Below are positions 1 to 7,083 of a DNA stretch of 7,083 bases, in pieces; positions within the stretch are counted from its first letter, which is position 1, and each line of letters starts with the position of its first letter. The stretch lies in assembly GCA_037147375.1 (NCBI GenBank), contig JBAWVI010000050.1:1-7083 (forward strand), read 5' to 3'. The notes under the pieces are model-generated. The model had not been told where the DNA came from and made no database searches. It saw nothing but the letters and a program-made list of their open reading frames with translations. This DNA comes from an archaeon. GTDB taxonomy: Archaea > Iainarchaeota > Iainarchaeia > Iainarchaeales > CSSED10-239. The position numbers were made by a program, and so were the translations under genes.

Positions 1-549
1 ACACATGGTCGTAAAGTATCATTTAAGAACTGTGTAATTTTGTTAACATCTAATGTTGGAACAAGAGTTGTGAAAGAGTTCAGTACTGGTGTTGGTTTTA
101 ATACTTTAGCCAAGAGTGATAATCACGATGCTGATATTAAATCTACTTTAGAGAAAGAGTTAAAAAAGAAATTCGCACCTGAATTTATTAATAGATTGGA
201 TGATATTATCTATTTCCGTGATTTAGGCAAAGAAGACATCAAGAAAATCGTAACTATTGAATTGAGCAAATCTGTTAAAAGATTACAAGGTATTGGTTAT
301 GAGTCTAGCATAACAGACTCTTTGATTGAACATCTGATTGAAGTTGGATATGATCCACAATTCGGAGCAAGACCTATGAAGAGAGCTATACAGAGATGTA
401 TAGATGATCCATTAACAGATAAATTATTAGATGAACCAAAGGTTGGATCTACACTGCTAATATCTTATGATAAAGATGAAGATAAAACAAAAATCGACAT
501 TAAAAAAATCACAAAAGAGAAGATTTCTAAGGAAGTTAAGAAAGTATAG
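1..549 (+). CDS. Clp/Hsp100-family AAA+ ATPase (ClpC/ClpA/ClpB type), C-terminal part only; the 5' end lies upstream of the window
   Basis: Frame 1 is open from base 1 (THGRKVSFKNCVILLTSNVG...), so the TTG at 40 in the ORF track is internal. Second-AAA-module and D2-small-domain hallmarks are present: 'LLTSNVG', 'FAPEFINRLDDIIYF' and 'GYDPQFGARPMKRAIQ'. Stop TAG is at 547-549. The C-terminus alone cannot separate ClpC, ClpA and ClpB. Confidence 0.85.
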   Translation, partial: THGRKVSFKNCVILLTSNVGTRVVKEFSTGVGFNTLAKSDNHDADIKSTLEKELKKKFAPEFINRLDDIIYFRDLGKEDIKKIVTIELSKSVKRLQGIGYESSITDSLIEHLIEVGYDPQFGARPMKRAIQRCIDDPLTDKLLDEPKVGSTLLISYDKDEDKTKIDIKKITKEKISKEVKKV

Positions 550-2667: not shown

Positions 2668-2700
2668 AAAAAAAATGAAAAGTTAAAAAGAAAACTTTTC
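2668..2700 (-). terminator. Probable intrinsic terminator of the minus-strand HD/NOX transcript
   Basis: On the minus strand an 8-bp stem (complement of 2693-2700 pairing with complement of 2677-2684) has an 8-nt loop, then one A and a U8 run (complement of A8 at 2668-2675). The hairpin overlaps the last NOX codons. The stem is AT-rich and therefore weak. Confidence 0.45.
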
Positions 2701-3996
2701 ATGATGTATTCTCTTCTTTGAAACACCCATTCTTTTTAATAACTTAATTATATGATTAGTCATTCCTGGGGGCCCACATACAAAGAAATCAGTGGTGGTT
2801 GGATTTAATATAACATTTCTAAGTTTATCCTCATTAAGATGCCCAAATTTATTAGATGAATGATAATAATGATTATGATTCTTTTCCTTAAGAGAATTAA
2901 GTTCTTCTCTAAAAACAATATCCTTATCATCCTTAACTGAGTAGATTAAAGTAATTTCTCTTGAAGGATCAAGTGTTAGTTCTTCAATTAATGATCTAAT
3001 AGGAGTTATTCCTATTCCACCAGCAATTAATACTACATTTTTATGCTTAATTCTATCCTTGTGGAAAGTTCCAAGTGGTCCTTCAATAATTATTGGGGTT
3101 CCTCTTTTAATTTCATGAACCTTAGATGTAAAGTCTCCTAGATTTTTAATAGATATTCTAAGTTCAATCTCTGAATGAGCTCTTGAAAAGGAAAAAGGAT
3201 GTGCCTCATAGAATGTTTTATCAAGAAATCTAAATATTCCAAATTGTCCTGCTTTAAACTTGAATCTATTTAACTTATTTCCTCTAATATAAATAGAAAC
3301 AATATCTTGATTTTCTTTAACAACTCTACTAACTACAAATCTATGTACATAATAGTTGTAGATAGGAACTAAGAAACGATAAACAACGAGTAAACCAATA
3401 ATAATTATATATAAAACATACCAATAAACTAAGAATGCATTATTTGAATAAAGATCCATTCCATTTTCAATCTGGTGTGAGAATGCTAAGATGATTACAA
3501 GATATGTAAATAAATGAGTTAAATACCATAACTCATACTTCATTTTAATCTTTGATAAAGTTATTGATAATATTATTATAATTATTAAGATTACAAATGC
3601 AAAAATTGCTGCTCCAATCTCGTCTCCACCAATAAACTTAAGTAATTGGCTTAAGAAAGAAATATTTGAGATTAATTTGTAACCTATAGTTAAGAAAAGA
3701 CCATGTAAGAACAATAAACCAAATGCAACAATTCCATTATAATGATGTATTCTTGAAAGCTTATCATGTCCGTATGTGTTTTCAATAAACTTTATCTTAG
3801 AAATTAATAATATTTGAATTAGGAATAAATAGGTTCCAATTAAACCAGTAATTCTTCCAAGAGCATTATACAAAGAGTCTCCAGTTAACATTGATTGATT
3901 ATTAAAATACCAAAAACCAAGGATGATTAAGATATTAAGTATAAACAAAGAGGTTAAGGTTATCTTTTTAGTAAGAGTTTTATTTATTTCATCCAT
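2683..3996 (-). CDS. NOX/FRE-family flavocytochrome: ferric-reductase transmembrane domain fused to an FAD/NAD(P)H-binding dehydrogenase domain
   Basis: 437 aa with a hydrophobic N-terminal half. Two bis-His pairs have NOX-like spacing: H84/H98 (14 apart) and H161/H174 (13 apart). Also present are the FAD motif 'HPFSFS' (266-271), the NAD(P)H motif 'GGIGITP' (326-332), 'CGPPGM' (407-412) and a C-terminal aromatic '...EKFSF'. Confidence 0.85.
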   Translation of the reverse strand: MDEINKTLTKKITLTSLFILNILIILGFWYFNNQSMLTGDSLYNALGRITGLIGTYLFLIQILLISKIKFIENTYGHDKLSRIHHYNGIVAFGLLFLHGLFLTIGYKLISNISFLSQLLKFIGGDEIGAAIFAFVILIIIIILSITLSKIKMKYELWYLTHLFTYLVIILAFSHQIENGMDLYSNNAFLVYWYVLYIIIIGLLVVYRFLVPIYNYYVHRFVVSRVVKENQDIVSIYIRGNKLNRFKFKAGQFGIFRFLDKTFYEAHPFSFSRAHSEIELRISIKNLGDFTSKVHEIKRGTPIIIEGPLGTFHKDRIKHKNVVLIAGGIGITPIRSLIEELTLDPSREITLIYSVKDDKDIVFREELNSLKEKNHNHYYHSSNKFGHLNEDKLRNVILNPTTTDFFVCGPPGMTNHIIKLLKRMGVSKKRIHHEKFSF

Positions 3997-4582: not shown

Positions 4583-4747
4583 AAATTATCATCTCTTTAA
4601 ATATAAATAATCACCCAAACTAAATAAAAACTCCTCTTTTTTAGGAAAAGATAGGTATTTAAATCATTTTTAGCATATATATATTATCTAAGTAACATTA
4701 ATTAATGATTAATAGCAGTTTTTTATTATTAGGGGGTTTGAGAATTT
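4583..4747. promoter_or_regulatory. Divergent intergenic control region between the HD/NOX pair (-) and the repeat-protein gene (+)
   Basis: A 165-bp non-coding AT-rich spacer between two divergently oriented start codons. On the minus strand, TTTATATT (complement of 4600-4607) sits 18-25 nt upstream of the HD ATG. SD AGGGGGT (4731-4737) lies 10 nt upstream of ATG 4748. A perfect 12-nt palindrome cattaattaatg is at 4696-4707. The exact promoters are not resolved. Confidence 0.4.
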
Positions 4748-6775
4748 ATGGTTTCAAAGAAAAATAAAGTAAACTTATCAAAATCACAATTAAAAAATAT
4801 TAAGACTAATATTAAAAAAAATAAAATAAGTATAGATAAAATTAAAACAAATATTAAAGATGATAAAGCTAATATTAAAGATGATAAAACACATATTAAA
4901 GAAGATAAAGCAAACATAAAGAAAGATAAGGTTCATATAAAGAAAGATAAAACTAACATAAAGAAAGATAAAATAAACATAAAGAAAGATAAAGCTAGCA
5001 TAAAAAAAGCTAAAGCAAGTATTAAGAAAGATAAAGCAAGCATAAAAAAAGCTAAGGCGAATATAAAAAAAGTAAAACCAATTTTAACAAAAGCACATAT
5101 TATTAAAGAACTTAAAAGACAAGCATCTAAACCTATTTTTAGAAGTAGATATATAATTAAACCAATTACAGTTAAACATATTATTGATGCAAAGCTTAGT
5201 TTAAAGCAAGCATTAACTATTCTTAAGAAAGGAAAAGTTAAAAATAAAGTTTTAAGTAAGATGAAATTTACTATTAAACAATTATTAAATAATGGATATT
5301 CTCCAAGAGACTTAAGAACAGCAGGATATACTGCAAGAGGGCTTAAGAACGCAGGAGTTTCTGTAAGATCTTTAAAGAATGTAGGATATACATTAAAAGA
5401 ATTATTATCTTGTAATAGTATTAAAGTAGTTATATCTTTAGGATATAAATTAAAAGAATTAAAAAGATTAGGATATACAATCAGTAAGCTAAAGAGAGCA
5501 GGCTTAAAGTTAAAAGATTTTAAAAAAATATTTACAATAAGAGAATTAAAAAATGCAGGATATACTTTAAGAGAATTATATAATGCAGGATTTACTATTT
5601 CTCAATTAAGAAAGGGTGGATTTACATTTAAACAATTCCTTGCAAGCAAGTTTACAATTAAACAATTATTTGATTCTGGATTTAGTTTACAAACATTCTA
5701 TGCAAATGGGTATACAATACATAACATAATTAATTCTGGAGTTTCAGTTAAAGATCTTCTTGCATCAGATATTAAAGTATCTGATTTCTATAAAGCAGGA
5801 GTTAAAGCAATTATCTTATACAAAGCAGGAGTTACTTTAAAGGAATTAAGAGAAGGAGGATATGACATCAAAGATTTAATTGATGTTGAATCTTTTTCAA
5901 AAGATAAAGTTACTACAAGAGAATTAAAATATCTTGGTTATTCAGTTCAAGATATATTATCTTTAGGTTATACAATAAATAATTTTAGAGAAGATGGATT
6001 TACAAGTAAAGAATTATCTGATGAAGGAATAACTTGTATTCAATTAAGAGATGGTGGATATAGTCTTTTAGATTTATATAAAGCAGGATGTACAATTTCA
6101 AGCTTATTTGGAATGGGTTATGGGCTTGAAGATTTCAGAGTTGCAGGCTTTTCTGCACTTAATCTTCATTTAGAAGGATATTCTCTTCATGAGCTTAGAA
6201 GAGCAGGTTTTTCTCCAAAAGATTTGATTACAGTTGGATATTCAGCAAAGCAATTTCATTCAGTTGGTTATACTGGAAAGGAATTATATGAAGCTGGTTT
6301 TTCACTTGCAACTCTTTATTTTGCAGGATATGCTGCAAAAGAGTTTAATGGACTTGGAATTCCTGTTAAAGAATTTTATGAAGCAGGGTATTCTGGAAAG
6401 GAAATGTCTCAAGCAGGTTATACACCTGTTGATTTAAGAAATAATTATTCAGTTAGAGAACTTAGAAGAGTTGGATTTTGGTCTTCTTCAATGAGAAAAG
6501 CAAATTATTCAGCAAGTGAGTTATATGATGCTGGTTACACTGTAAGAGAATTACATAACGCAGGTTATCCAGCTCTTGATGTATTTAATCTAGGAGTTGG
6601 AATAAGATTATTAAGAGTAGTTCATTATACAGCAAAAGAGATTAGACCACTTGGGTTTTCAGCAAGAGATTTAAAGAGGGTAGGATATTCTCTTCAAAAT
6701 TTAAAAGAAGCAGGATATAATGAATCAGAGCTTCTTGAAGCTGGATATTCACTTGAAAAAATAAAGGAAATATAA
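4748..6775 (+). CDS. Large repeat protein: Lys-rich heptad array, a degenerate linker, then about 50 decapeptide (double pentapeptide-like) repeats; function unknown
   Basis: A 675-codon uninterrupted ORF in roughly 70% AT DNA, where random frames close quickly. It has a good SD (AGGGGGT) 10 nt upstream of the ATG. Strong amino-acid-level periodicity is kept even where the DNA repeats have diverged, implying selection on the protein. No N-terminal signal peptide or TM segment is evident. Confidence 0.8.
   Translation: MVSKKNKVNLSKSQLKNIKTNIKKNKISIDKIKTNIKDDKANIKDDKTHIKEDKANIKKDKVHIKKDKTNIKKDKINIKKDKASIKKAKASIKKDKASIKKAKANIKKVKPILTKAHIIKELKRQASKPIFRSRYIIKPITVKHIIDAKLSLKQALTILKKGKVKNKVLSKMKFTIKQLLNNGYSPRDLRTAGYTARGLKNAGVSVRSLKNVGYTLKELLSCNSIKVVISLGYKLKELKRLGYTISKLKRAGLKLKDFKKIFTIRELKNAGYTLRELYNAGFTISQLRKGGFTFKQFLASKFTIKQLFDSGFSLQTFYANGYTIHNIINSGVSVKDLLASDIKVSDFYKAGVKAIILYKAGVTLKELREGGYDIKDLIDVESFSKDKVTTRELKYLGYSVQDILSLGYTINNFREDGFTSKELSDEGITCIQLRDGGYSLLDLYKAGCTISSLFGMGYGLEDFRVAGFSALNLHLEGYSLHELRRAGFSPKDLITVGYSAKQFHSVGYTGKELYEAGFSLATLYFAGYAAKEFNGLGIPVKEFYEAGYSGKEMSQAGYTPVDLRNNYSVRELRRVGFWSSSMRKANYSASELYDAGYTVRELHNAGYPALDVFNLGVGIRLLRVVHYTAKEIRPLGFSARDLKRVGYSLQNLKEAGYNESELLEAGYSLEKIKEI
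4811..5083 (+). repeat. 13 tandem 21-bp repeats encoding heptads I-K-K-D-K-x-N/S
   Basis: aa 22-112 read IKKNKIS IDKIKTN IKDDKAN IKDDKTH IKEDKAN IKKDKVH IKKDKTN IKKDKIN IKKDKAS IKKAKAS IKKDKAS IKKAKAN IKKVKPI. The central DNA units are near-identical, for example aagaaagataaaactaacata and aagaaagataaaataaacata. Confidence 0.9.
5267..6772 (+). repeat. About 50 tandem 30-bp (10-aa) coding repeats, consensus [YF]-[ST]-x-x-[ED]-L-x-x-A-G
   Basis: Hand parsing from F174 gives FTIKQLLNNG YSPRDLRTAG YTARGLKNAG VSVRSLKNVG ... YSLQNLKEAG YNESELLEAG YSLEKIKEI. Four units have 9 aa, and there is one 7-aa insertion (SFSKDKV). DNA copies are diverged, but the protein register is maintained to the C-terminus. 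Confidence 0.9.
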
Positions 6776-6818
6776 TTGAATTATTTTAAATTATCCTAAG
6801 TAAATACTTCTTATTTTT

Positions 6819-6846
6819 AAACCTTTTTATCTATAATACATATAAT
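6819..6846 (+). promoter_or_regulatory. Candidate promoter P2: AAACCT-N16-TATAAT
   Basis: AAACCT 6819-6824, a 16-nt spacer, then TATAAT 6841-6846. A second TATAAT lies at 6832-6837. It has the same architecture as 599-627 and 6898-6925. Confidence 0.35.
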
Positions 6847-6868
6847 TAAATGTAATTTAAAACAAAAT

Positions 6869-6897
6869 AACTGACTATAGTAAATAAGTTAGTTTTT
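6869..6897 (+). terminator. Hairpin plus T-run between the two promoter copies; either the repeat-gene terminator or the terminator of a very short P2 transcript
   Basis: aactgact (6869-6876) pairs with agttagtt (6887-6894) as 8 bp including one G-U. The loop is 10 nt, and the stem is followed by ttt (6895-6897), giving a T5 run at 6893-6897. Confidence 0.35.
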
Positions 6898-6925
6898 AAA
6901 CCTTTTTATTCACAATATATATAAT
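6898..6925 (+). promoter_or_regulatory. Candidate promoter P3 for the downstream His-rich ORF: AAACCT-N16-TATAAT
   Basis: AAACCT 6898-6903, a 16-nt spacer, then TATAAT 6920-6925, about 63 nt upstream of ATG 6989. Confidence 0.4.
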
Positions 6926-6988
6926 ATAGTTAAATGTAAACTTAAACAATATAATTAAAATTAAATGATTTGGAAAGGGGTATTATTT

Positions 6989-7083
6989 ATGACGCATGAC
7001 AAAACTGAAAATCATAAAGAACATGAACATCATGAAGAAATTAAATTTAGTAAAGAGAAGGTATGGATGATAACTACAGCTAT
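6989..7083 (+). CDS. 5' end of an ORF with a His/Glu-rich N-terminus (MTHDKTENHKEHEHHEEIKFSKEKVWMITTA...); runs off the window
   Basis: Not in the supplied ORF track because it is too short and truncated. SD-like GGAAAGGGG (6972-6980) lies 8 nt upstream of ATG 6989. An alternative in-frame ATG at 6965 directly follows an in-frame TAA. The ORF is open to the end of the window, and a hydrophobic segment seems to begin at 'VWMITTA'. Confidence 0.5.
   Translation, partial: MTHDKTENHKEHEHHEEIKFSKEKVWMITTA

Follow-up and report, generated by a model that had tools for sequence, protein, structure and literature searches.

The window analysed here, a 7,083-nucleotide (nt) stretch of archaeal DNA, carries a complete gene for a 675-residue protein whose C-terminal 502 amino acids (aa) consist of fifty decapeptide units of the type found in DotG/IcmE of Legionella pneumophila. 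We propose, with reasonable though by no means full confidence, that this is a soluble, basic protein of a DPANN archaeon in which the DotG/IcmE-type repeats form an alpha-solenoid with a scaffold or adaptor role. The parts of the gene on which this proposal draws are listed below, with the evidence used to place them, including the ratio of nonsynonymous to synonymous substitution rates (dN/dS) and Tandem Repeats Finder (TRF).

4748-6775, plus strand: decapeptide-repeat open reading frame (ORF), complete, 675 aa plus stop (ORF list)
4791-5087, plus strand: lysine-rich 7-aa (21-nt) tandem array, aa ~15-113, ~13-14 copies (TRF)
5084-5266, plus strand: degenerate decapeptide leader of ~5-6 units, aa ~113-173 (alignment to the orthologues at loci L012-L014)
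5267-6772, plus strand: fifty decapeptide units, aa 174-675 (parse and periodicity statistics)
6179-6772, plus strand: most conserved C-terminal block, 20 units, aa 478-675 (orthologue identity and dN/dS)

Fifty units with a period of ten

A sequence-only reading of the window had described about 50 uninterrupted decapeptide repeats at 5267-6772, and in-frame translation followed by a manual, script-checked parse returned 50 units. The array is nearly uninterrupted, with 45 of the 50 units exactly 10 aa long, but strictly it is not, as four units have 9 aa and one has 16 aa. The unit consensus is [YF]-[TS]-[ILAV]-[KR]-[ED]-L-x-x-A-G. Among the 45 ten-residue units, position 1 is Y in 24, F in 12, V in 5 and I in 3, position 2 is T in 18 and S in 16, position 3 is I, L, A or V in 36, position 4 is K in 16 and R in 9, position 5 is E in 16 and D in 10, position 6 is L in 31 and F in 8, position 9 is A in 19, and position 10 is G in 39. 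The same residue recurs at lag 10 with a frequency of 0.258, against 0.070 +/- 0.011 in 1000 shuffles (z=17), and lags 20, 30 and 40 echo this signal; the frequency at lag 5 is 0.044 against an expected 0.071 (z=-2.3), which is below random. Given the strong signal at lag 10 and none at lag 5, the array repeats every 10 residues and has no sub-period of five. The copies themselves have diverged, as had been claimed: identity between units of the array averages 0.50 at the DNA level and 29% at the protein level, and TRF reports just three 2-copy arrays of period 30 within it.

This periodicity bears on the suggestion, made in the same sequence-only reading, that each decapeptide is a pair of degenerate pentapeptides and that the array folds as a quadrilateral beta-helix of the Qnr/MfpA type, with ~25 coils and a possible part as a DNA mimic. 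Y/F and L do recur every five residues, with A at position -2 of Y/F. The depressed lag-5 autocorrelation speaks against such a division, and so does position 4, the i-2 site of the would-be second pentad. In known pentapeptide-repeat proteins the i-2 residue must be small, buried and inward-facing, whereas here it is K or R in 25 of the 45 units and is poorly conserved. These observations do not support the two-pentapeptide unit, and with the profile and structural results given below we judge the beta-helix improbable.

No globular domain flanks the array, in agreement with what had been read from the sequence: a lysine-rich array of heptads and a run of degenerate units precede it, and the protein stops directly after the last decapeptide unit. 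The heptads follow the consensus K-[DK]-K-x-[NS]-I-K, are described by TRF as 12.9 copies of period 21 with 76% matches, and contain families of direct repeats spaced 21 nt apart. Residues ~113-173, seemingly non-repetitive in the window, align with canonical G-Y-T-x-K-[DE]-L units of L012-L014. The N-terminus is highly charged: +51 of the protein's net charge of +64 falls in its N-terminal third. The remaining, C-terminal two thirds are neutral in charge and make up the best conserved part. The 675-aa protein has no signal peptide and, over its whole length, no hydrophobic or transmembrane segment (maximum 19-residue Kyte-Doolittle mean 1.13, inside the repeats); it is probably soluble, cytoplasmic and strongly basic.

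Membership of the DotG/IcmE repeat family

The sole significant Pfam match of the protein is PF25296, 'Decapeptide repeat region', at 396.5 bits against a cutoff of 45 (E=2e-121, in nine stretches), and the same family is matched by all seven of the orthologues that were compared (7/7). The pentapeptide families that had been put forward for checking, PF00805, PF13599 and PF13576, gave no match at E<=1, nor at E<=10, in the Pfam table of the window protein. A phmmer search of PDB sequences returned one real match, IcmE/DotG of L. pneumophila (E=7e-77; 7muc and other entries), whose residues 527-722 align in register over a length of ~200 residues; the best recognised pentapeptide-like chain in this single-sequence search was 4yfo, which we take to be a designed beta-solenoid, at a non-significant E=0.63. 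A profile built from the seven orthologues and run against the PDB (hmmsearch, E<=10) recovered only DotG, at E=1.7e-81, and no MfpA, Qnr or AlbG. In NCBIfam the top match is NF033900, the DotG/IcmE equivalog, whose 333.5 bits lie below the cutoff of 750 and whose alignment covers the repeat part of the profile only, the best of five stretches being profile positions 533-682. The likeness to DotG/IcmE that the sequence-only reading had pointed to is thereby borne out.

The protein is nevertheless not DotG, for it has neither a transmembrane helix nor the TrbI/VirB10 domain (PF03743, no Pfam match in the window protein but present in DotG homologues), and no Dot/Icm genes lie in the window or in the ~20 kb around the orthologues. 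Its identity to DotG proteins is 25-33%. One could still see in the gene a piece of DotG/IcmE from a type IVB secretion system, truncated or transferred, that serves, or once served, in a secretion machine, seeing that nearly all homologues in a word-indexed search are DotG/IcmE proteins and that NF033900 ranks first. Against such an origin stand the sub-cutoff, repeat-restricted NF033900 match and the missing domain, helix and neighbours just described, the archaeal host, the abundance of proteins that carry PF25296 and nothing else, and the orthologues themselves, which are intact, keep their synteny and show dN/dS well below 1, pointing to a long-resident functional gene and not to a fragment. 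We therefore hold a DotG remnant to be very improbable.

The family is large. When 1.84 billion cluster representatives were scanned exhaustively with HMMER, 2099 proteins matched at E<=1e-3, of which 252 reached E<=1e-30; many of these relatives in the representative library are 2000-4000 aa long, and none is more than 39% identical to the window protein. The library matches sampled include DotG with TrbI, PF25296-only proteins, numerous at 540-1100 aa, and fusions with EF-hand, Ostalpha and UBA domains, and the word-indexed search added fusions to protein kinase and U-box domains and a Symbiodinium protein annotated 'dotG'. Decapeptide proteins of this fusion or protist type are P0048, P0102, P0104, P0108, P0254 and P0369. 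The members outside the archaeal group look eukaryotic or bacterial, and the module is widespread in apparently protist proteins, beyond Legionellales. The word-indexed search did not return close orthologues, and the exact window sequence is absent from that collection. The array had also been thought far longer than characterised relatives, which is not so: DotG has 42 repeats in L. pneumophila and ~90 in L. longbeachae (PMC2824747). With library relatives reaching ~4000 aa as well, the fifty repeats seen here are ordinary for the family.

Known since the 1990s, the DotG/IcmE repeat domain of Legionella is where this repeat family was first noticed; we found no literature under PF25296 or under DotG together with decapeptide; the stand-alone archaeal protein is a new member of a known repeat family that lacks an experimental structure. 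'Pentapeptide' is a historical label of the DotG repeats (PMC6761968; bioRxiv 10.1101/2025.06.23.660953), although the laboratory that had modelled them as a beta-helix later defined their 10-residue motif as distinct from pentapeptide repeats. PF13599 (Pentapeptide_4) does score above its cutoff on several DotG proteins, a point for the beta-helix: the homologues P0253, P0258 and P0259 reach 61-101 bits against a cutoff of 38, on residues that PF25296 matches too. The Dot/Icm literature probably owes its 'pentapeptide repeat' label to this overlap, and 'pentapeptide' annotations on such proteins are probably inherited from the overlapping PF13599 model and wrong. The archaeal protein does not trigger PF13599.

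Conservation of the array among archaeal orthologues

Orthologues were found via synteny of the neighbouring ornithine decarboxylase (ODC) gene and by scanning genome and metagenome contigs with patterns. The 115.8-kb contig CAZCAP010000001.1 (isolate SRP178699_co1_70) carries a syntenic orthologue, and nine further metagenomic loci, one of them on a 976-kb contig, have orthologues of 54-99% identity; the syntenic orthologues are 57-97% identical. The scan of genome contigs, designed for close relatives only, returned one species among 185,579. These proteins make up an archaeal clade with its own conserved synteny, and the two protein collections searched contain no orthologue of it.

In seven orthologues the units can be aligned one to one, and indels are shared; the proteins have in common the four 9-residue units, the 16-residue unit and odd units, GFWSSSMRKA and GVGIRLLRVVH among them. 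Identity between orthologous units is 64-97%, compared with the 29% mean between units of the window protein, and dN/dS of the array relative to the window is 0.07-0.31. Because of these ratios and the unit-by-unit conservation we take the array to be old, fixed and under purifying selection; the sequence-only reading had argued for structural selection from the regular register. It might instead be low-complexity or disordered filler, produced by repeat slippage and having no defined fold or function, in a genome that is AT-rich, in a gene of ~25% GC, and beside an N-terminal heptad array that expands and contracts. Such filler fits poorly with units that share only 50% of their DNA and are nonetheless conserved position by position between orthologues at low dN/dS, with a regular hydrophobic pattern and with the very high model confidence reported below; we give it hardly any credence.

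Conservation is uneven along the protein. Even where identity over aa 174-475 has fallen to 55%, orthologues retain 78-84% in the C-terminal block of 20 units; this block, with a dN/dS of 0.05-0.19, is a candidate for a specific binding surface. Within the unit, positions 1, 6 and 10 are the most conserved among orthologues (0.90-0.92), the others lying at 0.70-0.80. All orthologues are basic, with a net charge of +24 to +64 concentrated in the N-terminal third. The lysine-rich array numbers ~13-14 copies in the window, ~3 in L007 (9881-10100), ~4 in L002 (12766-13000) and is missing from L010 and L012-L014. Rather than a conserved part of the protein, it is an expansion specific to the lineage, a fast in-frame copy-number polymorphism beside a very stable decapeptide array. 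The L007 strain is 96-97% identical to the window over aa 174-675.

A predicted all-alpha fold

We modelled the full-length protein with AlphaFold2 (AF2) from a 93-sequence alignment made up mostly of DotG repeats. For nearly every unit the prediction is a helix of six residues and then a loop of four, with no strand, and the predicted local distance difference test score (pLDDT) of the repeat region is mostly >90. The degenerate leader is modelled as short helices at pLDDT 41-66 and the lysine-rich array as long helices at low pLDDT. A second model, of the last 198 aa (m644b90eaf8bb), contains 20 short helices at pLDDT 96.3 and a predicted template modelling score (pTM) of 0.80. At the modelled helix starts S/T is the N-cap and E/D is N3, with Y/F at N' and L at N4. 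Helix N-termini are commonly stabilised by a capping box, which pairs an N-cap S/T with E/D at N3, and by a hydrophobic staple between N' and N4, and given the AF2 helix starts the motif [YF]-[ST]-x-x-[ED]-L fits both. Sub-threshold Pfam side-matches across the orthologues are likewise mostly to all-alpha families of helix-turn-helix (HTH) or SAM-like type, namely MerR_1, Raf1_HTH, AbiEi_4 and SAM_DprA.

Foldseek comparison of the full-length and 198-aa models with the PDB gave no real analogue (template modelling score <=0.24) and no beta-helix, MfpA, Qnr or AlbG, the weak neighbours being designed helical repeats and TPR/PPR-like proteins; the full-length model had no meaningful match in the BFVD viral library. 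Two strand-free models, the empty Foldseek result for beta-helices and the PDB profile search that gives DotG only all count against the pentapeptide-type beta-helix. At the level of prediction, what was obtained runs counter to that proposal on two points: the alpha-solenoid-versus-beta-helix comparison in AlphaFold came out as a helical solenoid, and pentapeptide matches are lacking. The abundance of already known homologues counts against the novelty claimed with it. The homologous DotG repeats were modelled in 2018 as the beta-helix wall of a channel (bioRxiv 10.1101/312009), and a published remark has it that the AlphaFold model of DotG is without a right-handed beta-helix (PMC13244404; bioRxiv 10.1101/2023.03.22.533729). 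The group behind the beta-helix itself came to note this contradiction, and the repeats were re-assigned to a flexible 'collar'. We tentatively suggest, at slightly less than even confidence, that the decapeptide repeat may represent a structurally new class of alpha-solenoid, with one ~6-residue capping-box helix per unit and no PDB counterpart.

A possible scaffold or adaptor

In the explanation that we propose, each 10-residue unit would fold as one short alpha-helix, with the closing A-G providing a glycine-based C-cap, and the units would build an elongated alpha-solenoid by stacking through Y/F at position 1, L at position 6 and A/G at positions 9 and 10. This would leave positions 2-5, 7 and 8 exposed, to make up a long surface. 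That surface would be unit-specific, a property suggested by the orthologues, which conserve each unit's identity, the odd ones included. The array may thus act as a rod-like binding scaffold or adaptor, with the C-terminal 20 units as a specific interaction surface and the lysine-rich N-terminal third as an anchor that attaches electrostatically to nucleic acid or some other polyanion.

The same alpha-solenoid could have a narrower role as a nucleic acid- or nucleoid-binding protein, a basic rod that coats or bridges DNA or RNA. The net charge of +64, with +51 in a first third that is basic in all orthologues, is consistent with this, the lysine-rich tail may be likened to linker-histone-like tails, and the unit resembles the turn and second helix of an HTH, in keeping with the side-matches to MerR_1, AbiEi_4 and Raf1_HTH. 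Every one of these HTH matches is below its curated cutoff, however, the best-conserved C-terminal two thirds are neutral, and the lysine heptad array is missing in several orthologues. The DotG repeats, moreover, are periplasmic, and the fusions to kinase, U-box and EF-hand domains point to protein-protein roles. We regard a dedicated nucleic-acid rod as unlikely, if clearly less so than the beta-helix.

Several considerations weigh against the scaffold proposal and the fold on which it builds. AlphaFold2 is the single source of the fold, and it can be confident yet wrong on some repeat sequences (PMC11795689). No solved structure resembles the model, so a solenoid of 6-residue helices has no experimental precedent, and the DotG repeat region has never been resolved experimentally, the 2025-2026 cryogenic electron microscopy and tomography (cryo-EM/ET) work included. 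In 2018 Phyre2 threaded the homologous DotG repeats onto the pentapeptide-repeat structures 3NB2 and 3DU1 (bioRxiv 10.1101/312009), which favours a beta-helix. The lysine heptad array, ranging from 0 to ~14 copies among relatives, cannot be essential to a core function. Finally, the neighbouring genes are housekeeping genes with no obvious functional link to the repeat gene.

Gene neighbourhood and host

Further features of the window are as follows.

40-549, plus strand: C-terminal fragment of a bacterial-type ClpB/ClpA-family protein, at the window edge, preceding ODC
669-1880: ODC (MEI8364527.1; the NCBI version has 393 aa)
2683-3996, minus strand: ferric-reductase-like membrane flavoprotein of NOX type (Ferric_reduct, FAD_binding_8 and NAD_binding), between ZIP and HD_4
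4732-4736, plus strand: putative Shine-Dalgarno-like GGGGG, 11 nt 5' of the repeat-gene ATG

The window makes up almost all of a metagenomic contig of 7.2 kb. The repeat gene is also called on ENA contig NODE_12402, and a motif similar to its GGGGG, AGGGG, precedes the ATG of the next gene at 6990. The AT-rich spacer between the repeat-gene stop and that ATG contains a 57-nt direct repeat (6814-6870 and 6893-6949, copies 75% identical and 79 nt apart) that starts with TTTTTAAACCTTTTTAT and may be a duplicated promoter or terminator region. Given the 393-aa NCBI version, the listed start of the ODC ORF at 669 is probably too far upstream. The order ODC, ZIP, ferric reductase, HD_4, repeat gene is kept in L013 and L014, and in L002 it is kept minus the ferric reductase, which is missing there (11975-12038); this gene is a gene-sized indel among close relatives. 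Relatives carry two tandem ODC paralogues of ~70% identity (L002:8709-11197; L014:4231-6725), and the window shows one. Other genes near the orthologues encode tRNA synthetases, PyrBI and FtsZ, among them a bacterial-type class II lysyl-tRNA synthetase (TIGR00499) near the L010 orthologue (L010:8185-9678, minus strand). Rfam found only a tRNA, in L014, in the window and seven related loci, and ARAGORN called the same single tRNA-His.

The best named homologues of the window ODC come from DPANN archaea. One contig with an orthologue encodes an FtsZ that shares 83% identity with that of Ca. ainarchaeum and has further homologues in Diapherotrites and Micrarchaeota; Woesearchaeota are also among the best DPANN matches of the ODC and FtsZ markers. 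Together with the depositors' archaeal labels, these homologues point to a DPANN archaeon as the host. A giant-virus or Legionellales origin, raised by the low GC content, was rejected on the same labels and the same ODC and FtsZ homologues.

Comparison with known systems

What sets this gene apart is that the repeat of a secretion protein here occurs as an independent, conserved and apparently cytoplasmic DPANN protein, far from any secretion system, which suggests that the repeat serves as a structural module of general use and is not a device specific to secretion. In a bolder variant, the protein would be a basic nucleoid- or partner-binding rod of DPANN archaea, and the module would then be common to archaea, Legionellales secretion systems and protists. 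The chief value of the gene is as a tractable model for the decapeptide-repeat fold: a soluble construct such as aa 478-675 (AF2 pLDDT 96) is suited to an experimental decision between alpha and beta, and if the new alpha-solenoid class is real, the archaeal protein, soluble and membrane-free, would offer the most tractable route to its structure.

With DotG/IcmE the archaeal protein shares the 10-residue type of unit, A-G-F-S-A-K-E-L-K-D in DotG and A-G-[YF]-[TS]-[ILAV]-[KR]-[ED]-L-x-x here. DotG, however, is a periplasmic protein that Gammaproteobacteria encode in their dot/icm locus, with an N-terminal transmembrane helix and a TrbI/VirB10 dome domain at the C-terminus, whereas the archaeal protein has none of the three, lies outside any such locus and appears cytoplasmic. 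The pentapeptide-repeat proteins MfpA, Qnr and AlbG are also built of short tandem repeats with a hydrophobic residue every five positions; the archaeal array differs from them in its period of 10, in the charged residue at the would-be buried site and in its predicted all-alpha structure. Classical alpha-solenoids (TPR, PPR, HEAT, ARM and designed repeats) are likewise elongated stacks of helices, but their units span 30-45 residues and contain two or three long helices, while the archaeal unit is predicted to hold a single 6-residue helix in every 10 residues.

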